From assembly GCA_964016885.1 (NCBI GenBank), contig OZ024740.1, positions 217,000,001-217,064,000 on the forward strand: a stretch of 64,000 nt of DNA, given 5' to 3'. Below, piece by piece: positions 1 through 38,773 of this stretch (positions are counted from its first letter, which is position 1; every line of letters begins with the position of its first letter). Made by a program: the position numbers and the translations under genes. Below the pieces are notes generated by a model. The model had not been told where the DNA came from. It worked only from the letters and a program-made list of their open reading frames with translations, and ran no database searches. The stretch is from Eledone cirrhosa (taxonomy: Eukaryota).

Positions 1-3000
1 CAATTCTACTATCTTTATTTAATAACACTAGTTCCTCTATCTCTCTAACAAAAACAACAATTCTACCATCTTTATTCAATAAGACTAGTTCCTCTATCTC
101 TCTAACGACAACAACAATTCTACCATCTTTATTCAATAAGACTAGTTCCTCTCTCTCTCTAACAACAACAACAATTCTACCATCTTTATTTAATAAGTCT
201 AGTTGATCTATCTCTCTAACAACAACAACAACAACAATTCTACCTTCTGTATTCAATAAGACTAGTTCCTCAATCTCTAACAACAACAACAATTCTCCCT
301 TCTTTATTCAATAAGACTAGTTCCTCTCTCTAACAACAACAACAATTCTACTATCTTTATTCAGTAAGACTAGTTCCTCTATCTCTCTAACAACAACAAT
401 TCTCCCTTCTTTATTCAATAAGACTAGTTCCTCTCTCTCTCTCTAACAACAACACCAATTCTACCATCTTTATTTAATAAGACTAGTTCCTCTCTCTAAC
501 AACAACAACAATTCTACCTTCTTTATTTAATAAGACTAGTTCCTCTATCTCTCTAACAACAACAACAATTCTACCATCTTTATTTAATAAGACTAGTTCC
601 TCTCTTTCTCTAACAACAACAATTCTACCATCTTTATTCAATAAGACTAGTTCCTCTCTTTCTCTAACAACAACAATTCCACCATCTTTATTCAATAAGA
701 CTAGTTCCTCTCTCTCTCTAACAACAACAACAATTCTACCATCTTTATTTAATAAGAGTAGTTGATCTATCTCTCTAACAACAACAACAACAATTCTACC
801 TTCTGTATTCAATAAGACTAGTTCCTCTCTCTAACAACAACAACAATTCTGCCTTCTTTATTCAATAAGACTAGTTCCTCTATCTCTCTAACAACAACAA
901 CAATTCTACCATCTTTATTTAATAAGACTAGTTGATCTATCTCTCTAACAACAACAACAACAATTCTACCTTCTGTATTCAATAAGACTAGTTCCTCTCT
1001 CTAACAACAACAACAATTCTGCCTTCTTTATTCAATAAGACTAGTTACTCTATCTCTCTAACAACAACAACAATTCTACCATCTTTATTTAATAAGACTA
1101 GTTCCTCTCTCTCTCTCTAACAACAACAACAATTCTACCTTCTTTATTTAATAAGACTAGTTCCTCTCTCTAACAACAACAACAATTCTACCTTCTTTAT
1201 TCAATAAGACTAGTTCCTCTCTCTAACAACAACAACAATTCTACCATCTTAATTTAATAAGACTAGTTCCTCTATCTCTCTAACAACAACAACAATTTTA
1301 CTATCTTTATTCAATAAGACTAGTTCCTCTATCTCTCTAACAACAACAACCTATTCTACCATCTTTATTCAATAAGACTAGTTCCTCTATCTCTCTAACA
1401 ACAACTATTCTACCATCTTTATTCAATAAGACTAGTTCCTCTATCTCTGTAACAACAACAACAATTCTACCATCTTTATTCAATAAGACTAGTTCCTCTA
1501 TCTCTGTAACAACAACAATAATTCTACCATCTTTATTCAATAAGACTAGTTCCTCTCTCTAACAACAACAACAATTCTACCATCTTTATTTAATAAGACT
1601 AGTTCCTCTATCTCTCTAACAATAACAACAATTCTACCATCTTTATTTAATAAGACTAGTTCCTCTCTTTCTCTAACAACAACAATTCTACCATCTTTAT
1701 TCAATAAGACTAGTTCCTCTCTTTCTCTAACAACAACAATTCCACCATCTTTATTTAATAAGACTAGTTCCTCTCTCTAACAACAACAACAATTCTACCA
1801 TCTTTATTTAATAATACTAGTTCCTCTATCTCTCTAACAACAACACCAATTCTACTATCTTTATTTAATAACACTAGTTCCTCTATCTCTCTAACAACAA
1901 CAACAACAATTCTACCATCTTTATTCAATAAGACTAGTTCCTCTATCTCTCTAACGACAACAACAATTCTACCATCTTTATTCAATAAGACTAGTTCCTC
2001 TCTCTCTCTAACAACAACAACAATTCTACCATCTTTATTTAATAAGTCTAGTTGATCTATCTCTCTAACAACAACAACAACAACAATTCTACCTTCTGTA
2101 TTCAATAAGACTAGTTCCTCTATCTCTAACAACAACAACAATTCTCCCTTCTTTATTCAATAAGACTAGTTCCTCTCTCTAACAACAACAACAATTCTAC
2201 TATCTTTATTCAGTAAGACTAGTTCCTCTATCTCTCTAACAACAACAATTCTCCCTTCTTTATTCAATAAGACTAGTTCCTCTCTCTCTCTCTAACAACA
2301 ACACCAATTCTACCATCTTTATTTAATAAGACTAGTTCCTCTCTCTAACAACAACAACAATTCTACCTTCTTTATTTAATAAGACTAGTTCCTCTATCTC
2401 TCTAACAACAACAACAATTCTACCATCTTTATTTAATAAGACTAGTTCCTCTCTTTCTCTAACAACAACAATTCTACCATCTTTATTCAATAAGACTAGT
2501 TCCTCTCTTTCTCTAACAACAACAATTCCACCATCTTTATTCAATAAGACTAGTTCCTCTCTCTCTCTAACAACAACAACAATTCTACCATCTTTATTTA
2601 ATAAGAGTAGTTGATCTATCTCTCTAACAACAACAACAACAATTCTACCTTCTGTATTCAATAAGACTAGTTCCCCTCTCTAACAACAACAACAATTCTG
2701 CCTTCTTTATTCAATAAGACTAGTTCCTCTATCTCTCTAACAACAACAACAATTCTACCATCTTTATTTAATAAGACTAGTTCCTCTCTCTCTCTCTAAC
2801 AACAACAACAATTCTACCTTCTTTATTCAATAAGACTAGTTCCTCTCTCTAACAACAACAACAATTCTACCATCTTAATTTAATAAGACTAGTTCCTCTA
2901 TCTCTCTAACAACAACAACCTATTCTACCATCTTTATTCAATAAGACTAGTTCCTCTATCTCTCTAACAACAACTATTCTACCATCTTTATTCAATAAGA

Positions 3001-4755
3001 CTAGTTCCTCTATCTCTGTAACAACAACAACAATTCTACCATCTTTATTCAATAAGACTAGTTCCTCTATCTCTGTAACAACAACAATAATTCTACCATC
3101 TTTATTCAATAAGACTAGTTCCTCTCTCTAACAACAACAACAACAATTCTACCATCTTTATTCAATAAGACTAGTTCCTCTATCTCTCTAACAACAACTA
3201 CAATTCTACCATCTTTATTTAATAAGACTAGTTCCTCTCTCTCTCTCTAACAACAACAACATTTCTACCATCTTTATTCAATAAGACTAGTTCCTCTCTC
3301 TCTAACAGCAACTATTCTACCATCTTTATTCAGTAAGACTAGTTCCTCTCTCTCTGTAACAACAACAACAATTCTACCATCTTTATTCAATAAGACTAGT
3401 TCCTCTCTCTCTCTAGCTAACAACAACAACAATTCTACCATCTTTCTTCAATAAGACTAGTTCCTCTATCTCTCTAACAACAACAACAACTATTCTACCA
3501 TCTTTATTCAATAAGACTAGTCCCTCTCTCTCTCTAACAACAACAATTCTACCATCTTTATTCAGTAAGACTAGTTCCTCTCTCTGTAACAACAACAACA
3601 ATTCTACCATCTTTATTGAGTAAGACTAGTTCCTCTATCTCTCTAGCTAACAACAATTCTACCATCTTTATTTAATAAGACTAGTTCCTCTCTCTAACAA
3701 CAACAACAACAATTCTACCATCTTTATTCAGTCAGACTAGTCTCTCTATCTCTCTAACAACAACAATTCTACCATCTTTATTTAATAAGACTAGTTCCTC
3801 TATCTCTCTAGCTAACAATAACAATTCAACCATCTTTATTCAATAAGACTAGTTCCTCTATCTCTCTAACAACAACAACAACAATTCTACCTTCTTTATT
3901 CAATAAGACTAGTTCCTCTCTCTCTCTAACAACAACAACAATTCTACCTTCTTTATTTAATAAGACTAGTTCCTCTCTCTAACAACAACAACAATTTTAC
4001 CATCTTTATTTAATAAGACTAGTTCCTCTCTCTCTCTAACAACAACAATTCTACCATCTTTATTCAGTGAGACTAGTCTCTCTATCTCTCTAACAACAAC
4101 AATTCTAGCATCTTTATTCAATAAGACTAGTTCCTCTATCTCTCTAACAACAACAACAACAATTCTACCATCTTTATTGAGTAAGACTAGTTCCTCTATC
4201 TCTCTAACAACAACAATTCTACCATCTTTATTCAGTGAGACTAGTCTCTCTATCTCTCTAACAACAACAATTCTAGCATCTTTATTCAATAAGACTAGTT
4301 TCTCTATCTCTCTAACAACAACAACAATTCTACCATCTTTATTCAATAAGACTAGTTCCTCTATCTCTCTATCAACAACAACAACAAATCTACCATCTTT
4401 ATTCAGTAAGACTAGTTCCTCTATCTCTCTAACAACAACAATTCTACCTTCTTTATTCAATAAGACTAGTTTCTCTATCTCTCTAACAACAACAACAATT
4501 CTACCTTCTTTATTTAATAAGACTAGTTCCTCTATCTCTCTAACAACAACAACAATTCTACCATCTTTATTCAATAAGACTAGTTCCTCTATCTCTCTAA
4601 CAACAACAACAATTCTACCATCTTTATTCAGTAAGACTAGTTCCTCTCTCTCTCTCTAGCTAACAACAATTCCACCATCTTTATTTAATAAGACAGTTCT
4701 TCTCTCTGTAAATAACAACAACAACAGTTCTACCATCTTTATTTAATAAGACTAG
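1..4755. repeat. Minisatellite, ~55-62 bp unit: (AAC)n-AATTCTACCATCTTTATTCAATAAGACTAGTTCCTCTATCTCTCT; truncated by the window start
   Basis: Direct tandem reiteration with variable (AAC)n and (CT)n lengths. Identical ORFs at 483-812 and 2332-2661 reveal an internal ~1.85-kb block duplication. Confidence 0.97.
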
Positions 4756-5229
4756 TTTTTTTTGCTGTGATATTGTTGTAATGTAGAGATATAGTGGTTG
4801 TGTCATTAGGGTAACTGGACTATCAAAGTAGCAACATCTCTAGAGGTTAAACCACTAATCTCTATATCTACTTAACTGTAAAATCAATTCTCTTAACTTC
4901 CCTCACTCAAGATATTCAAACCTGTCTGTTCCAGGAGAGACCATAGAGGCTAGATGGGTGCTGACCTCCTTTGGCACACAAGATGAACCTACTCCCTTGT
5001 GACTTTTTAACTAATATATTTAGAGTCTTCCAGTTCTCCTATATTGAATTGTTTCTATTTTCATGAATGTTGAGATAGAGATATTCCCAGCTATCCTTTG
5101 CTCTCTCTCTGATATTAATTTCATCTGATTTCCTTCCAAACTATCTTCAACTCTATCTCCTCTGAAATTCCTGTTTACATGTAAACATGTATTCAAATAT
5201 ATTTGTTTACTCACTGACAGACTAATATT

Positions 5230-6105
<876 letters not shown>

Positions 6106-6225
6106 ACGTGTTCCACCGGGGATAACCACAGTAAGTAAGGTACTCGATAGATTAGTAGAGTATATACAACAAAATTTAATATAGAAATGGCTTCTACAGG
6201 ACTAGAACTGTTTCATTTGAAGGAA

Positions 6226-6365
6226 AGCTGTCCTGGTGAGTTTAACTCGACAATGGACTGACATCCTGTCCAGGGGAAAGTTTAGTGCTCTCAACCACTT
6301 CATGCCATGTAATCTGGAATAAGCACCGGCTTCATGAGCCTCCAGACTTATAACAGACTTGACTA
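6226..6365 (+). mobile_element. Degenerate SINE body/tail fragment
   Basis: ATGGACTGACATCCTGTCCAGGGG...CTTCATGC...GGAATAAGCACCGGC...ATGAGCC resembles a conserved invertebrate SINE central/3' domain (recalled, not searched); no head present. Confidence 0.45.
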
Positions 6366-6704
6366 AGGATACTTTACCCAGTTTTCTAATGCTATTCTCA
6401 TTGTGGTGACTGTGTTTGGATATAAACAGAATGTTTATTTTTATGTTTTTTACAACTGCCTAATTTTATCCCATATCATATCAAACTTATTAAAACAGCC
6501 TCTTGTTCTATGAAACAAAAACTACTCATTTTAAAGGAATTCTATTTAAATTTAAATTTTCCTGCATAACTTTTAATATTTAATAACCTTTCGTTAAGTA
6601 ATGTTACAAATACCATCTTAATAAGGAAATAGTTAATTTTAGAAAAGCCTTCCAAACTCTTCATTAATAAATTAAAATACATTATCTTACCATTATCATC
6701 ATTA

Positions 6705-7200
6705 TCTTCTTCTTCTTCTTCTTCTTCTTCTTCTTCTTCTTCTTCTTCTTCTTCTTTTTCTTTTTCTTTTTCTTTTTCTTCTTTTTCTTCTTTTTCTTTT
6801 TCTTTTTCTTTTTCTTCTTTTTCTTCTTTTTCTTCTTTTTCTTCTTTTTCTTCTTTTTCTTCTTTTTCTTTTTCTTTTTCTTCTTTTTCTTTCTCTTCTT
6901 TTTATTCTTTTTCTTCTTTTTCTTTTTCTTCTTTTCTTTTTCTTCTTTTTCTTCTTTTTCTTCTTTTTCTTCTTTTTCTTCTTCTTCTTCTTCTTCTTGG
7001 AAGGATCATAAATGAAGAATCCTCAGGCACACCTTCCACTGGGTCCTATCAGAAGCAACTGTCTCCAACAGGACACCCAAGCAACACCAACCATGCTCAT
7101 AGATCTTAACCTACCATCTTGCTTATAGTCACCTCTGAATCTACTTCTTGACTTTATCCAGTGGTTCTTTCCTTAAACATTCTAACCACTTGTCCATAGT
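6705..7200 (-). mobile_element. (TTC)n-rich tract (6705-6998) abutting a decayed LINE 3' end; likely a (GAA)n-tailed RTE-like fragment
   Basis: The minus strand reads ...LETVASDRTQWKVCL..., resembling the RTE C-terminal 'A.DR..W' motif, then runs into (GAA)n. Confidence 0.45.
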
Positions 7201-7702
7201 ATTGGAACTGTGATCTATCAATTTCCTAGTATTGGAACTGTGATCTATCAATTTGGGAAAGTAGCTGGAACAACTGCCTGATCTCTGCGCTACATACCCG
7301 ATTGAGTAACATTATTCCAAAGACCCTTTGATAGAACCCTATTTCAGATACGCGTTTGTATTCGTGTATTCTTTTAGACTTTCCCCAAGGTTTGTAAGCA
7401 GTATAAGTGATTAAAAATACAATGATAAAAGGGTTAAAGGAACTAATGGAATATTTACTTCCAACAGCAGAGAGACAATGTTTGTGTATATTCCTGTAAG
7501 GTATTGATTTCAGGTTCTACAAACAAACTGCTTCCTAATTCCTTTTATTCAATTAGATTAGACCAAAATCCTATTGAACTTTTCAAATCAATATTATAGC
7601 TAAGAATCTTGCAGTTCTTAACTAGGTTCCTGATTGCTGCTTCATTGTTGCTAGATTCTGCAAAACATTTTTGGGTATTGAATATATGTTTTAGTTAATT
7701 CT

Positions 7703-9302: not shown

Positions 9303-9606
9303 CAACAACAAAAATTACAAGAACAGTTACTGCACCAGCTAAATGAACAATTGCAACTAAACATTCTGCAGCAATCTCAATTATTGCAGCAGCAACAACA
9401 GCAGAATGTGTCAGGTGCACAGTCAGGTCCCCTCCACAGTTCGGTTACACCGTCAGAAAAAAGTAAAAATAGTAAACAGATGAAGCAACGAATGCATGAG
9501 TTAAGTATACAGCAACAACAGTTAATACAACAAATACAGTTCCAGCAACGGCAGTTCCTTTTATCGCAGGGAATCGGACTTGTACAACCGTTTGGTGTTC
9601 CTCAGA
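9303..9606 (+). CDS. FoxP: Internal coding exon of a forkhead box P transcription factor (N-terminal Gln-rich region)
   Basis: Acceptor TTTTTTTAG ends at 9302 (phase 0) and donor A|GTTAGT starts at 9607 (phase 1). The open frame reads QQQKLQEQLLHQLNEQLQLNILQQSQLLQQQQQQ...KQMKQRMHELSIQQQQLIQQIQFQQRQFLLSQGIGLVQPFGVPQ. The motifs EQLQLN.LQQ and QQQQLIQQ.Q..Q.Q.LL.QG.GL match invertebrate FoxP as I recall them. No forkhead domain lies in the window, so identity rests on this exon alone. Confidence 0.8.
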
Positions 9607-9684: not shown

Positions 9685-10130
9685 TGTTTCTATTTTGGCA
9701 CAAGGCCAGCAATTACCCAGTACATATGGAGGCACATGGCTTAGTGGTTAGAGCATTGGCCTTGCAATCGAAAGGTTGTGAGTTCAATTCTCAGACTGGG
9801 TGATGTGTTGTTTCCTTGAGCAAGACACTTTATTTCACATTGCTCCAGTTTACTCAGCTGTAGAAATGAGATGATAGGGACTGGGGTCCATATCATTCCA
9901 CTGCAAAGTGGTCGTGGAGGTACCACGGCAAAAAAGCACCCAGCACTCACTGTAAATGAGGTTGGTGTTAGGAAGGGCATCCAGCTGTAGAAATCAAGCC
10001 AGAATCAGTTCCCGCCCCACCCTTGCAAGCAGGGAAAAGCGGACGTAAAATGAAATGATGATGATGATGATGATGATGATTACTGGTACTTTATTTTATC
10101 GATCCCGTAAGGATGAAAAGCAAAATTAAT
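9684..10130 (-). mobile_element. SINE family B copy (9684-9726 and 10081-10130) split by a SINE-A insertion
   Basis: GGCACAAGGCCAGCAATTACCCAGTAC | TACTGGTACTTTATTTTATCGATCCCGTAAGGATGAAA is the reverse complement of the intact copies at 14407 and 26394. Confidence 0.8.
9728..10080 (+). mobile_element. Full-length tRNA-derived SINE (family A) with RTE-derived 3' tail
   Basis: Pol III A box TGGCTTAGTGG and B box GAGTTCAATTC; CORE-like TCCTTGAGCAAGACACTT; tail GGTTGGTGTTAGGAAGGGCATCCAGCTGTAGAAA shared with RTE 3' UTRs; ends in (GAT)n. Confidence 0.9.
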
Positions 10131-14592: not shown

Positions 14593-15256
14593 TTATTCAA
14601 AGTAATCTAACTTATTTTATTAACGGGATAACAAAATGTATTCGGGACGCAGTCCTGCACTCCTCCCTTTATTATAGTTGATTCATAGATTATACATACA
14701 TTGTTAGATTTTTTTTGATTTTTTATTTGATTTTTTACATATTTTGAATTATAAAATACTTTATTTTTTAAATTGTCACATCTACACATTTTTCATATCA
14801 TTTATTTTCAAATACATATCTATATAGTTTTGCATCACCTTATCTTCTCTAGCATACCTTGCTAAAATATTGGTTTATCATCATCATACTTCTGTTTTGC
14901 ACAATTGCATGGCTTTGATGGGTTCTCATGATCCAAGACTAAACAGATCTGATGTGAATTAATTTTGCTCAAACATTCCATGTTTAGCATGGTCTCTACA
15001 GCTGTAAGCCCTTTCAAATGCCAACCGCCTTACACAGTATCTGAATGCATTTTTTATGGCATTAACCCTAATTGTTTACAGAGTGTTCTGGGTGCATTTT
15101 ATCATGACACCAACACACTAGAGAGATTGTCACATGCTTAGCCAGAGAGTTGAGTCCTCTCAAATAGTATATTATTTCTGCTAGATTGCCAAACGCCTCT
15201 AGTATCTCACCATATTTAGTGTTTCAGTGCTTTTACAGTGGACATGTTTTATATTA

Positions 15257-17850
15257 TGTCATACCACCAGCCTGCTCAGTTGTATGTCATACCACCAGCC
15301 TGATCAGTTCTATGTCATACCACCAGCCTGCTCAGTCCTGTCATACCACCAGCCTGCTCAGTTCTATGTCATACCACCAGCCTACCCAGTTGTATGTCAT
15401 ACCACCAGCCTGCTCAGTTCTATGTCATACCACCAGCCTACTCAGTTCTATGTCATACCACCAGTCTGTTCAGTTCTATGTCATACCACCAGCCTGCTCA
15501 GTTCTATGTCATACCACCAGCCTACTCAGTTGTATGTCATATCACCAGCCTGTTCAGTTCTATGTCATACCGCCAGTCTGTTCAGTTCTATGCCATACCA
15601 CCAGCCTGCTCAGTCCTATGTCATACCACCAGTCTGCTCAGTTCTATCATACCACCAGTCTGCTCAGTTCTGTCATACCACCAGTCTGCTCAGTTCTATA
15701 TCATACCACCAGCCTGCTCAGTTCTATATCATACCACCAGCCTACTCAGTTGTATGTCATACCACCAGCCTGCTCAGTTCTATGTCATACCACCAGCCTG
15801 CTCAGTTGTGTCATACCACCAGCCTGCTCAGTTCTATATCATACCACCAACCTCCTCAGTTCTATGTCATACCACCAGCCTGCTCAGTTCTCTGTCATAC
15901 CATCAGCCTGCTCAGTCCTATGTCATACTACCAGTCTGATCAGTTCTATGTCATACCACCAGTCTGCTCAGTTCTATGTCATACCACCAGTCTGCTCAGT
16001 TCTATGTCATACCACCAGCCTACTCTGTCCTATGTCATACCACCAGCCTGCTCAGTCCTATGTCATGCCACCAGCCTGCTCAGTTCTATGTCATACCACC
16101 AGCCTACTCAGTTCTATGTAATACCACCAGCCTGCTCAGTCCTATATCATACCACCAGCCTGCTCAGTTCTGTCATACCACCAGCCTACTCAGTTCTATG
16201 TCATACCACCAGTCTACTCAGTTCTATGTCATACCACCAGTCTGCTCAGTTCTATGTCATACCACCAGTCTGCTCAGTTCTATGTCATACCACCAGCCTA
16301 TTCAGTTCTATGTCATACCACCAGCCTGCTCAGTTCTATATCATACCACAAGTCTGCTCAGTTCTATATCATGCCACCAGTCTGCTCAGTTGTATGTCAT
16401 ACCACCAGTCTGCTCAGTTCTATGTCATACCACCAGTCTGCTCAGTTCTATGTCATGCCACCAGTCTGCTCAGTTCTATGTCATGCCACCAGCCTGCTCA
16501 GTTCTATATCATACCACCAGTCTGCTCTGTCCTATGTCATACCACCAGCCTGCTCAGTTCTATGTCATACCAACAGTCTGCTCAGTTGTGTCATACCACC
16601 AGCCTGCTCAGTTCTATGTCATACCACCAGTCTTCTCAGTTCTGCCATACCACCAGTCTGCTCAGTTCTATGTCATACCACCAGCCTGCTCAGTTCTATG
16701 TCATACCACAAGTCTGCTCAGTTCTATGTCATACCACAAGTCTGCTCAGTTCTATGTCATACCACCAGCCTGCTCAGTCTTATGTCATACTACCTGCCTG
16801 CTCAGTCCTATGCCATACCACCAGCCTGCTCAGTTCTATGTCATACCACCAGCCTACTCTGTCCTATGTCATACCACCAGCCTGCTCAGTTCTATGTCAT
16901 ACCACCAGCCTACTCTGTCCTATGTCATACCACCAGTCTGCTCAGTTCTATGTCATACCACCAGCCTGCTCAGTTCTATGTCATACCACCAGCCTACTCT
17001 GTCCTATGTCATACCACCAGCCTGCTCAGTTCTATGTCATACCACCAGCCTACTCTGTCCTATGTCATACCACCAGCCTGCTCAGTTCTATGTCATACCA
17101 CCAGTCTGCTCAGTCCTATGTCATACCACCAGCCTACTCAGTTCTATGTCATACCACCAGCCTATTCAGTTCTATGTCATACCACCAGCCTGCTCAGTTC
17201 TATGTCATACCACCAGTCTGCTCAGTTCTATGTCATACCACCAGCCTGCTCAGTTCTATGTCATACCACCAGTCTGCTCAGTCCTATGTCATACCACCAG
17301 CCTGCTCAGTTCTATATCATACCACCAGCCTGCTCAGTCCTATGTCATACCACCAGCCTACTCTGTCCTATGTCATACCACCAGTCTGCTCAGTCCTATG
17401 TCATACCACCAGCCTACTCAGTTCTATGTCATACCACCAGCCTATTCAGTTCTATGTCATACCACCAGCCTGCTCAGTTCTATGTCATACCACCAGTCTG
17501 CTCAGTTCTATGTCATACCACCAGCCTGCTCAGTTCTATATCATACCACCAGTCTGCTCAGTTCTATGTCATACCACCAGCCTGCTCAGTTCTATATCAT
17601 ACCACCAGTCTGCTCAGTTCTATGTCATACCACCAGCCTGCTCAGTTCTATATCATACCACCAGTCTGCTCAGTCCTATGTCATACCACCAGCCTGCTCA
17701 GTTCTATGTCATACCACCAGCCTACTCAGTTCTATGTCATACCACCAGCCTACTCTGTCCTATGTCATACCACCAGTCTGCTCAGTTCTATGTCATACCA
17801 CCAGTCTGCTCAGTTCTATGTCATACCACCAGCCTGCTCAGTTCTATGTC
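15257..17850. repeat. 28-bp minisatellite TGTCATACCACCAGCCTGCTCAGTTCTA (~90 copies)
   Basis: 28-bp period; the ORFs cycle through a 28-aa (3 x 28 nt) peptide in all three + frames. Confidence 0.97.
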
Positions 17851-18475
17851 ATCTCCCTGGTTCAGTTTCTTGAGGTCATTCTTCACAACTTCATGTCTGT
17901 GTCTCCCTCTCCTTTTATCTCTCTCCCTCTCCTTTTATCTCTCCCCCTCTCTCTTTCTTAAACACTGAATAGTTTGAATTTGGGAACACTATTTTGGAAT
18001 CATACCCATGCCTCCCTCACTTTCATCATAACAATCATACACAGCATTATCATCATCATCAGTAGCATTATCACCATGATTATCATCATCATCATCACTA
18101 TCCACATTGCCATCACCACTATCAATCACTGTCGTCATCACCATCATCAGTATTTAATCCCTTCAATAAGCTAAGCTGTCCACAGCTGTTACCAAATATA
18201 GTGTAGACATTTATCAATGCCAACACTCATTAAACATGAACAGTTTGGGTGATTTCTAAATAGTATTTGTAGCTGAGTTGTTAGTGCATTGGCTTCAATG
18301 ACCAAATATTTGTTCCAGCTCACTGTGCTCTGAGTTCAAATCCTGCCAAGGTCAACATGGTAGAATGGCCAGGGTAGACTTATATTCAGGGTCAATATTT
18401 TGATGATTTTCAGCAACTTCAAATTCTATGTAAATAAGGTTTTGTATTTTTGCCCATTTCTCAGACATAAAATAG

Positions 18476-23692: not shown

Positions 23693-24168
23693 TTAACCTT
23701 TTTATGGCCATATTTATAAGAAAAAACTGTAACTGAAGTGACTTACTAAAATGACTGTTTCATTATTTACCCTTTTGATATGAAATCACCTGAAAATTCT
23801 GGTTCTGTGATGTAAACTGAATAATTCTACTGTTATATTTATCTAAAAACCTCCCATCATAATTTTATGTAAGAAACTTTATGTTCAAAACACAATTTTA
23901 ATAATTGTTTCTAGTTTAGGCACAAGGCCAGCAACACAGCATTAATAATGAAAAACGTTTGTTGTATTACTAAATCATTTTCAGAATATTTGAAAGTCAT
24001 ATTCTATTGTGATAACAAAAGATTTAAGATGGTATTTGTAACATAAAAGGTTCTTATATAAAATTATGATAGATGTTTTTAATTTAAATAGGAAGCCTTT
24101 AAAATGTGTAGTTTTGTCTGATAGAACCAGAGGCAAGTATTTAGTGGGTTGGTATGAAAATGGTTAAT
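23693..24168. mobile_element. Cluster of decayed TTAA-type (piggyBac-like) MITE fragments in both orientations
   Basis: TTAACCTTT/TTTACCCTTT starts; CTGGTTCTGTGAT versus ATAGAACCAG in inverse orientation; end TGGTATGAAAATGGTTAA. Related decayed pieces at ~6470-6690 and ~7400-7437. Confidence 0.5.
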
Positions 24169-24318
24169 GCAAGAACTAGGTTCTAGTTTTGATCAATGGT
24201 TGTTATTAACAATTGATTAAACATAGTAACACCTCTACCCCACTTGACACTTCTCTCATAACCCATTGGGCGTTTCAGCAGACGTTTTCACATCAAAAAT
24301 CTTGCAAGATCAAATATA

Positions 24319-24419
<101 letters not shown>

Positions 24420-24546
24420 CATCATCATCATCATTTTTACATCCGCTTTTTTACGTCCACTAACCCATGTGCCTCCTTGTATATATATAATATTGATATA
24501 TACAATGATATTAAATAAATGGAAACTATATTTATAAAACCATATT

Positions 24547-24607
24547 TATTCTATTATATATATTTCAAGGGTACCAAAATTTTGGTACACTATCATCAGA
24601 TAAAATA
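24547..24607 (-). ncRNA. Minimal type-I hammerhead ribozyme motif (core intact)
   Basis: Minus strand: UAUUUUAU-CUGAUGA-[uagu GUACC aaaauuuu GGUAC ccuu]-GAA-AUAUAUAU-A^-AUAGAAUA. Stem I pairs 8/8 (one GU); stem III is palindromic. The base of stem II is U.U. Confidence 0.7.
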
Positions 24608-24721
24608 CGAAGTGTGTTTTATCAATTTTGACATAACCAAGGAGAATATACCTTAACGGTTCAAGTTATCCTTGGATAACTATTCTCCTTGGTTATGTCA
24701 AAATTGATAAAACACACTTCG

Positions 24722-24782
24722 AATTTTATATGATGATAGTGTACCAAAATTTTGGTACCCTTGAAATATATATAATAGAATA
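24722..24782 (+). ncRNA. Hammerhead motif, mirror copy with core mutation (AUGAUGA instead of CUGAUGA); probably inactive
   Basis: ATGATGA at 24730-24736; otherwise essentially the reverse complement of 24547-24607. Confidence 0.55.
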
Positions 24783-24996
24783 AATATGGTTTTATAAATA
24801 TAGTTTGCATTTATTTAATATCATTGTATATTATACTCCAGAAAACTGTAGAGTGCTCTGAATCAGTTATAAACATTTATATTTGTTGAATTACCAACAA
24901 ATTGAATAGCCCTTCTGCTTATAATATATATATGTACATATATTATATATATATATATATACATATATATATTATATACATATATATATTATATAC

Positions 24997-25058
<62 letters not shown>

Positions 25059-25125
25059 ACACACACATATATATATATATATATGTATACACACACATAT
25101 ATATATATATACATATATATATATA

Positions 25126-26350
25126 TCTAGTTTGTAGGAAGGAAAATAGGGTGCCGGTCCCATCCGGAAAATGGCCATGCTCAGTGTGTAGGAAAGGAGT
25201 AGGTAGAAACTCCATTTTATGTCCCAAATGCAAAGTATGGGTGCATAAAAGATGTAGTGGGATCACAGGTAAGCTAACTAAGAACATAGATTTTATATTT
25301 GGCCGGTGCTCTGGTGCAATAAGTAGCAGCAAGTGCGCACTGAATACTAGCTCATTCCATTGCACAGATGGTTCTATAGAAATAGTGGATAGCTTCCATT
25401 ACTTGGGTGACAAAATCACCAGTGGGGGAGGGTGCTCTGAAAGTACAGTAGCTAGAGTCAGAACTGGATGGAAAAAGTTCAGAGAGCTTATACCACTATT
25501 AGCCGCTAAAGGGTTTTCCCTAAAAATGAAAGGCAGGCTGTATGATGCCTGCATACGAACAGCAATGTTGCATGGCAGTGAGACCTGGGCATTGTGTGCA
25601 GAGGATATACGCAGACTGGAGAGGAACGAAGCTTGCATGCTCCGCTGGATGTGTAATAGTAATATACGTGAATGGCAAAGCATAAATGAACTAAGGGAAA
25701 AATTAGAAATAAGAGGGATCAGATGTTGTTTACTCGAGAGAAGGCTACGTTGGTATGGTCACGTGATGCGCATGAAAGACGACAGCTGTATAAAAAAGTG
25801 CAGGGCAATAAAAATAGACGGTAGCCACGGAGTAGGCAGACCCAGAAAAACCTGGGACGACTTGATAAATTCCGACCTCACACACACCTCTCCAAGACAA
25901 TGTCACTGGACCGAGAGCTTTGGCGCTACACAGTAATAGTACCTAATGTACCTAAGTACAAAGTGAAACCTACTACAGTCAGTAGGCACCTCTAACAAAA
26001 TACACCCCTCGTCCCACTACCCCCACACCATCCACACCACCCCTTTCAATGTAAAGTTATGTTGGTACCGCAACATCCAGCCCGAAACAAATGAGGTCGT
26101 GTAGGTGTCACGACAAAAAAACACACAGTCCACGCTGTAATGTGGCCGTGTAGGTAATGCGGTAAAAACCTCCCAGTTCCACACTGTAAATGTGGTTGGT
26201 GTTAGGAAGGGCATCCAGCCATAGAAAACCAGCCAGACAGTCCTATGCGAGCAAGACAACCACTCTTGCCTCAAGTTGGAAAAGTCCCGTCCAAACCCAT
26301 GCAAGCGTGGAATATGGATGTTAAACGATGATGATGATGATGATGATGAT
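25126..26350 (+). mobile_element. RTE-clade LINE, 5'-truncated, frameshifted near the C-terminus
   Basis: [13 protein letters not shown]...F.YLG..I...[15 protein letters not shown]...LHGSETW...[12 protein letters not shown]...GRPRKTW; 3' UTR with (GAT)n; (TA)n on both sides. Confidence 0.93.
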
Positions 26351-26393
26351 ATATATATATATATATATATATATCATTATTTGATTTATTTAT

Positions 26394-26586
26394 AAGGCGG
26401 TGGATTGGCAGTATCGGTAGAGGGTCGGACGCCATGCTTTCCAGCATAGTTACGTCCCTTTACGATCTGAGTTCAAATCCCGCCGAGGTTGACTTTGCCT
26501 TTCATCCTTACGGGATCAATAAAATAAAGTACCAGTAAGGCACTGGGTAATTGCTGGCCTTGTGCCTAAAGTAGAAACAATTATTT
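26394..26586 (+). mobile_element. SINE family B, full length
   Basis: AAGGCGGTGGATTGGCAGTATCGGTAG...GAGTTCAAATCCCGCC (5'/3' acceptor-stem-like GGCGG/CCGCC), central motif and tail as at 14405. Confidence 0.9.
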
Positions 26587-26860
26587 GATTTATTTAGTAC
26601 CCTTTTTAACTGTGGTTACCCCCTATTTTACTCGGGATCGGGATCTACATATATATATATATATATATTAAATTATGGAGCAAAGCTTATCAAATAGAAT
26701 GGTTACAGCTTCAGTCATTTCTTCACTCACTCAATAATATAATTAAGTCAGATTTATTTAAATTCAAACCCAACTGATTAGAGTGTACACTTAAATGTTA
26801 ATAAGTGAGGAAGACGACTTTCTTCTAGCCCACCTTGATCTCTGCGCGCACACACACACT

Positions 26861-26908
<48 letters not shown>

Positions 26909-27360
26909 TACTTGGAGTTCCTTATATTTGTGTAGCTATATATTTAAAATCATCATCATTTTAAAGTCTGTTTTCCCCACCAGCAGAGTTTGGGTGGGTC
27001 TCCACAGATTGAGTCAATACTCAAGCAGTGCTACTGACCCCTCAGATGAGCAGGGGTCCCACATCTTACTTATATATATTCCCATATTATACTAGGTGTA
27101 TTTTATCATGGGATCAGCACTAGGGAGGTTGTCATGTCTTTCATATAGTTGAACAGCCCTTCCGACCCTCTTCTTTAGGTGTTTTTTTCTTTCTGTATCT
27201 ATAGACACATACACACACACCCATACTATATACATATATATATATGTGTGTATGTATGCATATATTTGCGTGTGTGTATGTATATATATATATATCTGTT
27301 TGTGTATATATGTGTATGTGTGTATGTATATATGTATGCATGTTTATTTGAATATATATA

Positions 27361-27685
27361 TATCATCCTCATTTTACGTCCGCTTTTTCCTGCATGCAAG
27401 GGTGGGACGGGAACTGATTCTGGCTTGATTTCTACAGCTGGATGCCCTTCCTAACACCAACCTCATTTACAGTGAGTGCTGGGTGTTTTTATGCCGTGGC
27501 ACCTCCACGACTACTTTGCTGTGGAATGATAGGGACCCCAATCCTATCATCTCATTTCTACAGATGAGTAAACTGGAGCAATGTGAAATAAAGTGTCTTG
27601 CTCAAGGAAACAACACATCACCTGGTCTGAGAATTGAACTCACAACCTTTCGATTGCAAGGCCAATACTCTAACCACTAAGCCAT
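27361..27685 (-). mobile_element. SINE family A, near full length
   Basis: Reverse complement of 9736-10060, including the A and B boxes; inserted in a (TA)n context. Confidence 0.92.
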
Positions 27686-27857
27686 ATATATGTGTGTGTA
27701 TATATATATATATAGATATATATATATGCAAAAGTTCTATTTAAATTGTTGCGATACAACAAGCAAATATTTTTATAACTGATATAAAGCACTCAACAAG
27801 TATTTGGAGTAAACATACGATATTAACAAATGGAAACTATATTTATAAAACCATATT

Positions 27858-27922
27858 TATTTCATTATACATATTTCAAGGACACCAAGTTAAATTATGG
27901 TGTGCTTTCATCAGACAAAATA
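27858..27922 (-). ncRNA. Minimal type-I hammerhead ribozyme motif (core intact)
   Basis: TCATCAG at 27908-27914; reverse complement of the 28050-28114 motif. Confidence 0.72.
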
Positions 27923-28049
27923 TAATAATATATAAGTAAAACAACTCCACTATATAAGTAAACAACTCCACTATCCGGAAGCTTCCAACAGTAATGGTTG
28001 CATTTTTTAAGGGTATGTCAATATCTATTTATAAAACTGATCTATATTA

Positions 28050-28114
28050 TATTTTGTCTGATGAAAGCACACCATAATTTAACTTGGTGTCCTTGAAATA
28101 TGTATAATGAAATA
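28050..28114 (+). ncRNA. Minimal type-I hammerhead ribozyme motif (core intact, sense to FoxP)
   Basis: UAUUUUGU-CUGAUGA(28058-28064)-AAG c ACACCA [loop] UGGUGU c CUU-GAA-AUAUGUAU-A^(28106)-AUGAAAUA. Stem I pairs 8/8 with GU; stem III is self-complementary; AATAAA follows at 28111. Confidence 0.75.
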
Positions 28115-28291
28115 AATATTGTTTTATAAATATAGTTTCCATTTGTTAATATCGTATATATATATATATATAGTAATAATAATAATAAATTTGAAGACTA
28201 AAATCCAAAGAGGGCTTGATAAGGATAAATATATATCAAATATTTAAGAACCGTAGAGCAAATATTTATTAAAATATTTTAATAAATATAT

Positions 28292-28363
<72 letters not shown>

Positions 28364-28413
28364 TGCGTGTGTGTGTATATATATATATGTATATATACAC
28401 ATATACATACAGA

Positions 28414-28451
<38 letters not shown>

Positions 28452-28737
28452 CATATATACATATACATACAGATGTGTGTGTATGTGTATATATATACAC
28501 ATTTTATTAAGTCTACACTGTGAGTGTAGTTACTGTGGATAAACAGGCAAAATATCAGAGTAACAAGACTCACTATTTAGTCTGAATAAAATGAATATTA
28601 AAACTCTACTTTGGTATTGAATACTCTTTGCCCTCAACCATCAATCACACATACACACACACATATACACACATGCACGCGCACACACAGACACATGCAC
28701 ACATATATATATACACACACACACATGTATACATATG

Positions 28738-28958
28738 CATCCTTCAAAACTTCCTAAAATTTGCCAACACTGCACCTGATATTCCCCATTCATACACACG
28801 CAAGCATATGTGGTGTGTGTGTCTGTGTGTCTGTGTATATCACGACTCATATACTGTCCACTTTCCCGACGTTTGTATATTATTTTATGTACTATACATG
28901 CACATTTGATGAGTGAGTTGTAGTGCACCTGAGCACTGTACACAATAATTTTCATTAT
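28738..28958 (+). mobile_element. CR1 LINE 3' UTR fragment
   Basis: GCATCCTTCAAAACTTCC...GTAGTGCACCTGAGCACTGTACACAATAATTTTCATT matches the other CR1 tails. Confidence 0.85.
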
Positions 28959-32006: not shown

Positions 32007-32856
32007 CAGTACAAGGGAGGTTGTAATGTACCTGACACCACTACAGTACCTTCAGCCCTATACCAATACTAGGGAGGTTGTGTGTACCTGACACCACTAT
32101 AGTAACTTCAGCCCTATACCAATACTAGGGAGGTTGTAGCGTACCTGACACCACTACAGTACCTTCAGCCCTATACCAATACTAAGGAGGTTGTAGTGTA
32201 CCTGACACCACTACAGGACCTTCAGCCCTATACCAGTACAAGGGAGGTTGTAGTGTACCTGACACCACTATAGTACCTTCAGCCCTATACCAATACTAAG
32301 GAGGTTGTAGTGTACCTGACACCACTACAGGACCTTCAGCCCTATACCAATACTAAGGAGGTTGTAGTGTACCTGACACCACTACAGGACCTTCAGCCCT
32401 ATACCAGTACAAGGGAGGTTGTAGTGTACCTGACACCACTATAGTACCTTCAGCCCTATACCAATACTAAGGAGGTTGTAGTGTACCTGACACCACTACA
32501 GGACCTTCAGCCCTATACCAATACTAAGGAGGTTGTAGTGTACCTGACACCACTACAGTACCTTCAGCCCTATACCAGTACAAGGGAGGTTGTAGTGTAC
32601 CTGACACCACTATAGTACCTTCAGCCCTATACCAATACTAAGGAGGTTGTAGTGTACCTGACACCACTACAGGACCTTCAGCCCTATACCAGTACAAGGG
32701 AGGTTGTAGTGTACCTGACACCACTACAGGACCTTCAGCCCTATACCAGTACAAGGGAGGTTGTAGTGTACCTGACACCACTACAGTACCTTCAGCCCTA
32801 TACCAGTACAAGGGAGGTTGTAGTGTACCTGACACCACTACAGTACCTTCAGCCCT
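32007..32856. repeat. 57-bp minisatellite GTACCTGACACCACTACAGTACCTTCAGCCCTATACCAGTACAAGGGAGGTTGTAGT (~15 copies)
   Basis: 57-bp period (ACCTTCAGCC at 32161, 32218, ...). Confidence 0.95.
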
Positions 32857-32971
32857 AGCCCTAACCACTTCACACAGTTTGCTTGACGTAGTTTATTGTG
32901 ACTAGCACTATCATGGCCCCATGTGTATACGTTTGTATATATGTATTTGTGTATGTTTATATATATGTATG

Positions 32972-33009
<38 letters not shown>

Positions 33010-33047
33010 GATGCGTATATGTGTGTGTGTATATATATGTATGTATA

Positions 33048-33078
<31 letters not shown>

Positions 33079-34370
33079 GGCCGAGCTAGAGAAGAAATTC
33101 CAAACATGGAAGCACGGCCTAGAGTCAAAAGGACTTAAAATTAACCTGGCTAAGACCAAAGTTCTAGTTTGTAGGAAAGAAAACAAGGCGGCGGTCCCTT
33201 CTGGGAAATGGTCGTGCTCGGTGTGTAGGAAAGGCGTAGGTAGAAACTCCATTTTGTGTCCTAAATGCAAAGTATGGGTGCATAAAAGATGTAGTGGGAT
33301 CACAGGTAAGCTAACTAAGAACATAGATTTTACATGTGGCCGGTGTTCTGGTGCAATAAGTAGCAGCAAGTGCCCACACAATACTAGCTCTTTCAATTGC
33401 GCAGAGGGTTCTATAGAAATAGTGGACAGCTTCCGTTACCTGGGCGATAAAATCAGCAGTGGGGGAGGGTGCTCTGAAAGTACTGTAGCTAGAGTCAGAA
33501 CTGGTTGGAAAAAGTTCAGAGAGCTTATACCACTATTAGCTGCTAAAGGGTTCTCCCTAAAAATGAAAGGCAGGTTGTACGATGCCTGCATACGAACAGC
33601 AATGTTGCATGGCAGTGAGACCTGGGCATTGTGTGCAGAGGATATACGCAGACTAGAGAGGAACGAAGCTTGCATGCTCCGCTGGATGTGTAACAGTAAT
33701 ATACGTGAACGGCAAAGCATAAACGAACTAAGGAAAAAATTAGAGATAAGAGGGATCAGATGTTGTTTACTCGAGAGAAGGCTACGTTGGTATGGACACG
33801 TGATGCGCATGAAAGTCGATAGCTGTATAACAAAGTGCAGGGCAATAAAGATAGACGGTAGCCACGGAATAGGCAGACCTAGAAAAACCTGGGACGAGCT
33901 GATAAACTCCGACCTCACACACTTACACCTCTCCAAGACAATGTCACTGGACCGAGACCTTTGGCGGTACTCAGTAACAGAGAAGACCCGCCTTGCCAGT
34001 AGGCATCTCTAACAAAATACACCCCGTCCCACCCCCACCACCCCCACCCCATCCACACCACCCCGTCCTATGTAAAGTTATGTTGGTGCCGCGCCATCCG
34101 GGCCGAAACAAATGAGATCGTGTAGGTGTCACGACAAAAAAACACACAGTCCACGCTGTAATGTGGCCGTGTAGGCAACACGGTAAAAACCTCCCAGACC
34201 CACACTGTAAATGTGGTTGGTGTTAGGAAGGGCATCCAACTGTAGAAAACCTGCCAGACAGTCCTATGCGAGCAAGACAATCACTCTTGCCTCAAGTGGG
34301 ACTACCCCCGTCCAAACCCATGCAAGCGTGGAACACGGACGTTAAACGTTGATGATGATGATGATGATGA

Positions 34371-37312: not shown

Positions 37313-38579
37313 TTTTAAAATTAACCATCAAGAAGTAAATATGAAACATCTACGTAATCTCTTTTCTAAGTAGAAATAGTAGCAAGATATCCCTCAAATA
37401 ACACCTTATTGTCTTATATATCTTTACATGCTAGAAATAGCAGCCAGATCTCCATCAAATCAGTCCTTATTGTCTTCTATATCTTGACATGATAGAAATA
37501 GCAGCTAGATCTCCCTCAAATCACAGTTAACTGTCTTATATATATCTTGACATGCTAGACATAGCAGCTAGATCGCCTTCAGATCACACTTTACTGTCTT
37601 ATATATCTTGACATGCTAGCAATAGCAGCAAGATCTCCCTCAAATCACAGTTTACTGTCTTATATATCTTGACATGCTACAAATAGCAGCTAGATCTCCC
37701 TAAAATCACACTTTACTGTCTTATGTATATTGAAATGCTAGAAATAGCAGCTAGATCTAGCTCAAATCACACCATACTGTCTTATATATCTTGACATACT
37801 AGAAATAGCAGCTAGATCTCCCTCAAATCAAACTTTACTGTCTTATATATCTTGAGTAGCTAGAAACAGCAGCCAGATCTCACACATAGCACATCTTATT
37901 GTCTTATATATATGGAAATGCTAGAATTAGCAGCCAGATCCCCCTCAAATCACACTTTAATGTCTTATATATCTCTAAATGCTAGAAATAGCAGCTAGAT
38001 CTCTGTCAAATCACACTTTACAGTCTTATATAACTTGATATGCTAGAAATAGCAGCCAGATCTCCCTCAAATCACACCTTATTTTCTTATATATCTTGAT
38101 ATGCTAGAAATAGCAGCTAGATCTCCCTCAAACCACACCATAATCTCTTATATATCTTGACTTTCTAGAAATAGCAGCCAGATCTCCTAGAAATCACACT
38201 TTACTGTCTTATATTTCTTGACATGCTAGAAATAGCAGCCAGATCTCCCTCAAATCACAGTTTACTGTCTTATATATCTCGACTTGTTAGAAATATTAGC
38301 CAGATCTCCTTTATATCACACCTTATTATCTTATATATCTTGAAATGCTAGAAATAGCAGCCAGATCTCCCTCAAATCACGCTTTACTGTCTTATATATA
38401 TTGACATGATAGAAATAGCAGCCAGATCTCCCTCATATCACACCTTATTATCTTATATATCCTTACATGCTAGAAACAACAGCTATATCTCCTTCAAATC
38501 ACACCATACTGTCTTATATATCTTGGCATGCTAGAAATAGCAGCTAGATCTCCCTCAAATGACACTTTACTGTCTTATA

Positions 38580-38773
38580 TAATAATAATAATTGTTTCTA
38601 CTTTAGGCACAAGGCCAGCAATTACCCAGTGCATTACTGATACTATATTTTATCGACCCCGTAAGGATGAAGGGCAAAGTCAACCTCGGTGGGATTTGAA
38701 CTCAGATCGTAAAGGGATGTAACTATGCTGGAAAGCATGGCGTCCGACCCTCTACTGATACTGCCAATCCACC
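38580..38773 (-). mobile_element. SINE family B inserted in the satellite, abutting a CR1 tail
   Basis: Reverse complement of the 26394 copy with an (ATT)n tail. Confidence 0.9.

Follow-up and report, generated by a model that had tools for sequence, protein, structure and literature searches.

The 64,000-nucleotide stretch of the Eledone cirrhosa genome analysed here (assembly GCA_964016885.1, contig OZ024740.1, forward-strand positions 217,000,001 to 217,064,000; hereafter the window, whose own numbering is used throughout) contains two palindromic elements, A and B, that lie in TA repeats and carry hammerhead ribozyme motifs. What kind of element are they, and could they act on the gene, presumably FoxP, in whose intron they appear to lie? 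They had been taken, in an original prediction, for a family of cassettes derived from Penelope without an open reading frame (ORF), possibly working as a cleave-or-fold switch. Our analysis indicates that each palindrome is very probably one insertion of the pseudo-long terminal repeat (pLTR) of a Hydra-clade Penelope-like element (PLE). Two head-to-head, 5′-truncated pLTR copies, one of them with a tail of about 89 nt, would have been placed in a TA repeat, likely as a single event, by the reverse transcriptase (RT) and endonuclease that the element encodes.

Both inverted-repeat elements are real, and TA arrays flank both (24923-25126 to the right of element A, 27684-27727 to the left and 28153-28172 to the right of element B). 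The arms of element A (24498-24648 and 24681-24831) are 151 nt long and 98% identical, those of element B (27810-27927 and 28045-28162) are 118 nt long and 97% identical, and the two elements, in opposite orientation as predicted, are about 71% alike over their length. The predicted layout of short copy, spacer and long copy with tail held for the arms and the tail; the supposed spacers are the further 5′ reach of the tail-less pLTR copy, together with a small hairpin (A) or a 21-nt duplication (B) at the junction. In element A the tail-less copy is a whole solo pLTR (24498-24678, minus strand), which has its 5′ end at a common TATCC, ends in TA and is 98% identical to loci L180 and L181. A perfect hairpin with a 7-bp stem and a 2-nt loop marks the inversion junction (24665-24680), and an inverted 5′-truncated copy (24681-24831, plus strand), identified by comparing the inverted arms, leads into a tail of about 90 nt (24832-24922, plus strand). 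Element B begins with an 88-nt tail (27728-27815, minus strand), 92-99% identical to tails in ORF-bearing loci, and continues with an inverted 5′-truncated copy (27816-27927, minus strand), a 21-nt tandem duplication at the junction (27929-27951, plus strand) and a tail-less copy corresponding to the transposon's last ~205 nt (27952-28157, plus strand). The last of these is 98.5% and 98.1% identical to the terminal pLTRs of the ORF-bearing loci L097 and L100. In full-length copies, the stretch from the 5′ pLTR to the ATG is the counterpart of both window tails, which align with it.

The parent transposon was identified from its copies elsewhere in the genome. Counted as exact patterns, for which reversed-pattern controls gave zero, the 42-nt hammerhead core of element B occurs 3,364 times, the 37-nt core of element A 19 times, and a pLTR 32-mer that lies shortly 3′ of the ribozyme 38,181 times. 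A protein search yielded 96 scored ORF copies, 88-100% identical, many of which keep a frame open for at least 700 amino acids, and pLTR sequence was present in all 20 loci picked by their ORF. In L089 the order is inverted pLTR with tail, pLTR with tail, a 743-residue frame, a 1.7-kb 3′ untranslated region (UTR) and a final pLTR; the partial-tandem pLTRs, inverted 5′ copy and optional tail characteristic of PLEs were found in L087, L089, L093, L096 and L101. Similarly, L033 has an RT and endonuclease frame, a 1.5-kb 3′ UTR and then a hammerhead in ORF sense, and its opposite end carries a short tailed copy in inverted orientation. Full-length members have 3′ UTRs of 1.5-1.9 kb and clear pLTRs, and the hammerhead lies on the ORF-sense strand near the 3′ end. 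For the A type, two of 20 loci (L180 and L195) continue upstream for 1.3-1.7 kb and reach the C-terminal end of a sister ORF that is 62-66% identical; L106, a candidate for an A-type pLTR upstream of an ORF, was rejected, being a separate insertion followed by a TA repeat. The Penelope origin is upheld, with pLTR copies adjoining RT/GIY-YIG ORFs, but not the ORF-less family with a fixed unit of its own: the elements are instead truncated insertions of ORF-bearing Hydra-clade PLEs, with arms spaced from 92 nt to 4.3 kb.

The assignment to the Hydra clade follows the motif definition in section 11 of PMC8557442. The 742-residue protein of L087 carries DKT118, RIRWR (R37 and W38; K in 75% of homologues, R here), the linker cysteines CNCRNKSNC601 (CxCx5C) and, around the E and N residues, CDLC699 (CxxC) and CRH726 (CxH). 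It lacks GxKF/Y and, with a single unconserved cysteine between VVY and YVG, also CCHH. These motif columns are conserved across 92 aligned proteins, as are the GIY-YIG residues VVY620 to YVG635, R646, H650, E705 and N721. A telomerase-like RT is indicated by YRDD at position 352 and by the best Foldseek matches, the TERT structures 3du5 and 6zdq (E 4.5e-9 and 6.5e-9); the structure model of this ORF has a predicted local distance difference test score of 89.7. Atlas neighbours of the ORF carry PF01541 in 31-50% of their members, which we treat as a lead. The (TA)n insertion and 3′ hammerhead expected of the clade are also present, 68 of 74 sampled copies ending in TA. A Neptune-type reading of the cysteine linker was dropped after the motifs were checked against the Hydra definition. 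The only close homologue with a species name is from Argonauta hians.

Several further features of the family were observed. Between the RT and the endonuclease, residues 484-510 and 588-597 of the L087 ORF form Asn-rich, low-confidence stretches similar to the N-rich inserts that a passage of PMC3846280 describes in rotifer Penelope ORFs. The pLTRs of L107-L176 fall into at least four subfamilies that differ in stem II and in the tail, and clusters of nested copies in L035 (G000:C1:168373000-168382000), L033 (5320-5900) and L130 have new insertions in the TA arrays of older copies. L033 also contains, at 5945-7318 on the minus strand, a fragment of a second Hydra-type ORF that is 39% identical to L087 and whose motifs, judged by eye, are nearer to those of Hydra-1_Obim; more distant ORF fragments lie in L023, L041, L182 and L193.

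To characterize the ribozymes, both strands of the whole window were scanned with a descriptor, which found exactly three type-I hammerheads, all inside palindrome arms; the same descriptor gave no match in 300 Markov controls of 24000-28800. Two belong to element B (28050-28114, plus strand, predicted cut after A28106; 27858-27922, minus strand, predicted cut after 27866) and one to element A (24547-24607, minus strand, predicted cut after 24555), and all three retain the CUGANGA, GAAA and UH core with stems I-III. The plus-strand arm of element A (24722-24782) has A in place of C3 (24730) and a change in stem I (24722) and is predicted to be inactive, so the claim that every arm holds the core applies to three arms of four. 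A28106 is, as anticipated, the residue preceding the predicted cut, and the type-I fold with a palindromic stem III was likewise borne out, stem III being self-complementary across genomic copies too. Stem II, which covaries across subfamilies, is longer than had been described: it consists of 3 bp, a mismatch and 5 bp, with a first pair that is A-U or U·U rather than G-C. The Rfam comparison proposed as a check gave no match to any hammerhead model at the gathering score or at E ≤ 10.

Is the fold maintained? We took 74 copies located by the downstream 32-mer, which is not part of the ribozyme; they come from 70 loci at the beginning of contig 1, four listed matches retrieved previously having been passed over. 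Nine copies were dropped for deletions or truncation within the motif, two of which also had a core change, and the parse filter tolerated three mismatches in 15, giving a slight lean toward intact cores. Among the 65 copies kept, C3, U4, G5, A6 and G8 are invariant and A9, G12, A13 and A14 are each present in 64, while the free position N7 varies (T40/G12/A8/C5). The whole core is intact in 58 of the 65, stem III keeps its self-complementarity, and stem II contains a near-invariant C·C mismatch (64/65), with a bulge in one subfamily. In a covariation set of 39 aligned sequences (35 picked by hand, with duplicates thinned, and the four window arms), 95.8% of stem cells are paired, as against 38-53% in slid controls, and three stem II pairs change on both sides. 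The covariation score was reached by none of 500 shuffles, but pair-count measures do no better than the shuffles (250/500 and 495/500), and the copies are related. The sequence of stem I is strongly conserved as well. Because the core is kept while N7 varies and stem II covaries, the alignment indicates that the hammerhead fold is kept by selection in active transposon lineages.

How such insertions might arise is suggested by their ends. The predicted targeting of TA repeats is confirmed by the share of sampled copies, given above, that end in TA. A tail is present in 24 of the 74 copies and is 88-91 nt long in 20 of 23 measured. The junction with (TA)n falls at either of two fixed points some 89 nt apart, and in the full-length sequence TAT or ATATA is found at both. 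From 229 distinct copies in the scored loci we assembled 58 adjacent head-to-head pairs less than 4.7 kb apart. Exactly one tail is present in 48 of these, where independence predicts about 28 at a tail frequency of 97/226 (p = 1e-7), and the arms are at least 95% identical in 44. Since the spacing ranges so widely (in the 41 pairs closer than 1 kb it is 92-539 nt), there is no fixed palindrome unit, and apart from local duplications we noticed no inversion junction shared among the pairs. At the other end, (AC)TATCC is the start, to within 3 nt, of 22 of the 62 B-type copies scored (80 were examined, 18 were dropped for identity below 88%, and part had been chosen as pairs), and likewise of 11 of 30 copies in a second sample and of the minus-strand copy of element A; this common 5′ end may be the start of the transposon RNA. 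A genome-wide contrast of 2,404 pLTR starts with 533 carrying one native upstream 8-mer was set aside, since upstream differences among subfamilies make it exaggerate the shared 5′ end. A pattern joining TA to the pLTR start matched nine copies and is uninformative.

The geometry of the ends suggests twin priming from two start points. The GIY-YIG domain would nick both strands of the TA array; one nick would serve to prime RT from the inner start point, the second nick from the outer one, each through a short TA-like match to the RNA. Both cDNAs would then stop early or run to the RNA 5′ end and be joined end to end. In the active transposon, the tandem same-sense pLTRs could form a hammerhead dimer.

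Several observations weigh against the interpretation of the palindromes as twin-primed insertions of a Hydra-clade PLE. Six of the 58 pairs have no tail and four have two, although in those four the plus copy is the inner pLTR upstream of an ORF, and the pair set is non-random and includes duplicated loci, its selection having been blind to tail state. As the source of similar junction palindromes, PMC3846280 favours self-priming on an antisense template. The loci recovered include no full-length ORF that has an A-type pLTR, and Pfam and PDB sequence searches named no family for the ORF, with no Pfam RT or GIY-YIG match. The probable placement in the Hydra clade draws on motifs, the reference proteins having been compared by eye from supplement passages. 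Further, the unit of about 4.3 kb (L089) exceeds the length below 3 kb that is typical of Hydra, a tendency rather than a rule, and the tail of about 89 nt is longer than the printed 30-40 nt. Finally, the 10.1-11.1 pair is A-U in 52 and U·U in 6 of 65 copies rather than G10.1-C11.1, but U next to both core boxes is also seen in printed Hydra hammerheads (PMC8557442 supplement).

Other readings of the palindromes account for part of this evidence. Long inverted arms and TA flanks recall DNA-transposon miniature inverted-repeat transposable elements, with a hammerhead present by chance, but most copies are single arms (63 of the 74 lack a near inverted partner), the tail is on one end, the spacing varies, and the core is conserved with covariation. 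Above all the arms belong to an RT-encoding element, a linkage that refutes this reading and leaves it scarcely credible. A palindrome or solo pLTR could alternatively be a non-autonomous element in its own right, transcribed from the promoter of its pLTR and, in the manner of a retrozyme or a short interspersed nuclear element (SINE), mobilised again in trans. Short copies do far outnumber long ones in the samples taken, and many share the (AC)TATCC start; a bioRxiv preprint (10.64898/2026.07.22.740005) argues that animal retrozymes derive from PLE pLTRs. However, the start of the full transposon RNA explains the shared 5′ end equally well, junctions and spacings differ from pair to pair, the pLTR variants match those of ORF-bearing copies, and the window copies are inverted pairs rather than tandem arrays of the pLTR unit. 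We therefore consider a separate non-autonomous element unlikely, and truncated insertion of the parent PLE the better account.

The proposal that the elements act as a regulated cleave-or-fold switch on FoxP pre-mRNA is very improbable. In its favour, the core of element B is intact on the FoxP-sense strand, and stem III of A and of B could pair with each other at -3.2 kcal/mol. However, whichever strand of a head-to-head pair is transcribed, transcription reaches the antisense arm ahead of the hammerhead. The predicted folds are hairpins with energies of -186 and -235 kcal/mol (z -22 and -33), and for element B stem I was computed to have a probability of 0.000000. With the antisense arm first in line and no hammerhead fold left by the hairpin, the switch is unsupported. 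A monomeric stem III would require a 2-nt loop, which the folding model forbids; the palindrome duplex of stem III is worth only 2-3 kcal/mol, and neither element contains a same-sense dimer partner. In addition, the FoxP-sense core of element A is mutant, and the arms differ at 1-3 positions, which points to recent insertions. Two earlier reports likewise describe a monomeric minimal PLE hammerhead that did not cleave (PMC4209133) and PLE hammerhead cleavage that needed the PLE protein (PMC11167929). In the folding model the hammerhead would be buried in a long hairpin, and the two truncated insertions are most likely inert apart from forming double-stranded RNA (dsRNA) in the FoxP intron.

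That location is itself reasonable, because two FOXP-CC exons lie on the plus strand 12.7 and 32.9 kb past the window end and a phase-matched Q-rich exon lies upstream (9303-9606, plus strand), which would put both elements in an intron upstream of the FOXP-CC exons. The Q-rich exon, likely part of FoxP, received no name from Pfam and Atlas searches. The window contains further repeats in or near the locus. Two copies of the 3′ part of an ORF resembling that of a long interspersed nuclear element, with a Cys-rich stretch and an RT C-terminus, lie on the plus strand at 24890-25936, between palindromes A and B, and at 32906-34012; they are presumably RTE/BovB-like. A 61-nt satellite with higher-order periods and about 347 copies occupies 37371-38581 and 39564-60718, arrays of a 57-nt unit cover 1-4757 and 32010-32857, and an array with a 28-nt unit covers 15255-17852. 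The tRNA-like heads at 9735-9798 (plus strand) and 27627-27684 (minus strand) probably belong to SINEs, and a SINE-like piece at about 26393-26580 resembles an insert in the 3′ UTR of L180.

Compared with described systems, the family is new, but its clade and its arrangement are known: Hydra PLEs with a hammerhead, (TA)n targeting, inverted copies and tails are already in print, including an octopus family. As in the Hydra-clade PLEs of Craig et al. 2021 (PMC8557442), a single ORF encodes RT with a C-terminal GIY-YIG domain, with DKT and CxCx5C and without CCHH, accompanied by a 3′ hammerhead and (TA)n insertion; the present family differs in its unit of about 4.3 kb, with a 1.5-1.9-kb 3′ UTR, in its tail of about 89 nt and in its tens of thousands of copies. 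Passages of its supplement describe Hydra-1_Obim of Octopus bimaculoides, which prefers (TA)n and has a hammerhead but is listed without the pLTRs that are clear here and differs by eye in N-terminus and hammerhead, and Penelope-13_HM, which has an inverted 5′-truncated copy and a hammerhead on both strands. Like the minimal PLE hammerheads of Cervera and de la Peña 2014 (PMC4209133), ours are type I with a long stem II and a palindromic stem III unable to close as a monomer; unlike them, they lack G10.1-C11.1 and an extra base after A9, and have an 8-bp stem I and the inner C·C of stem II. The same paper reports opposite-strand hammerhead pairs 100-700 bp apart and many single motifs from truncated PLEs.

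A parallel for the insertion ends is Poseidon PAc of Anolis carolinensis (Frangieh et al. 2024, passages of PMC11167929), which also has an AT-rich target and two insertion end points bracketing a tail downstream of the hammerhead; there both strands were cut and extended in vitro, and the tail lies between two RT start points. Those start points are inside the ORF and not homologous to the target, whereas here the tail belongs to the 5′ UTR and both end points, at TAT/ATATA, could pair with a nicked TA array. Animal non-LTR retrozymes are similarly short, ORF-less, hammerhead-bearing and PLE-related, but as tandem same-sense units, which are also the subject of the preprint cited above, in contrast to the inverted pairs of variable length in the window. 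In the passages available, PMC8969392 treats inverted pLTRs and tails as routine, and PMC13282606 lists Penelope families in Octopus vulgaris with ribozymes unmentioned. Our literature search turned up no report of this family, of its copy number or of a one-tail-per-pair count, and Repbase, Dfam or supplements may already hold the family. What was not found in print as counts is the single tail in 48 of 58 pairs and the many copies that share one 5′ end.

The palindromes themselves mean little, being truncated insertions of a known transposon clade. The family behind them is useful: its copies form a deep set for covariation analysis of a hammerhead variant undetected by Rfam, and tens of thousands of young copies with near-intact ORFs allow large-sample tests of inverted and tailed PLE insertion, the origin of which is called unresolved in passages of PMC8557442 and PMC11167929. 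An inverted partner lies within 650 nt of 11 of the 74 sampled copies (seven loci), a share that extrapolates to thousands of such hairpins genome-wide. Passages of PMC5625713 report for octopus a share of near-perfect dsRNA loci, and of hyper-editing, that is unusually high and is not assigned to repeats, and for a lizard heavy editing of Penelope; the pLTR hairpins are plausible candidate substrates for ADAR editing. Tentatively, and as a possibility to be held loosely, these insertions may record a PLE mechanism in which both nicked TA strands prime the same RNA at two TA-like points about 89 nt apart, leaving one tail per pair, and often on the short stretch that separates the RNA start from those points. 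Through a massive expansion of the Hydra clade, the resulting thousands of near-perfect 100-150-bp hairpins might then be a major source of intronic dsRNA and adenosine-to-inosine hyper-editing in this cephalopod.

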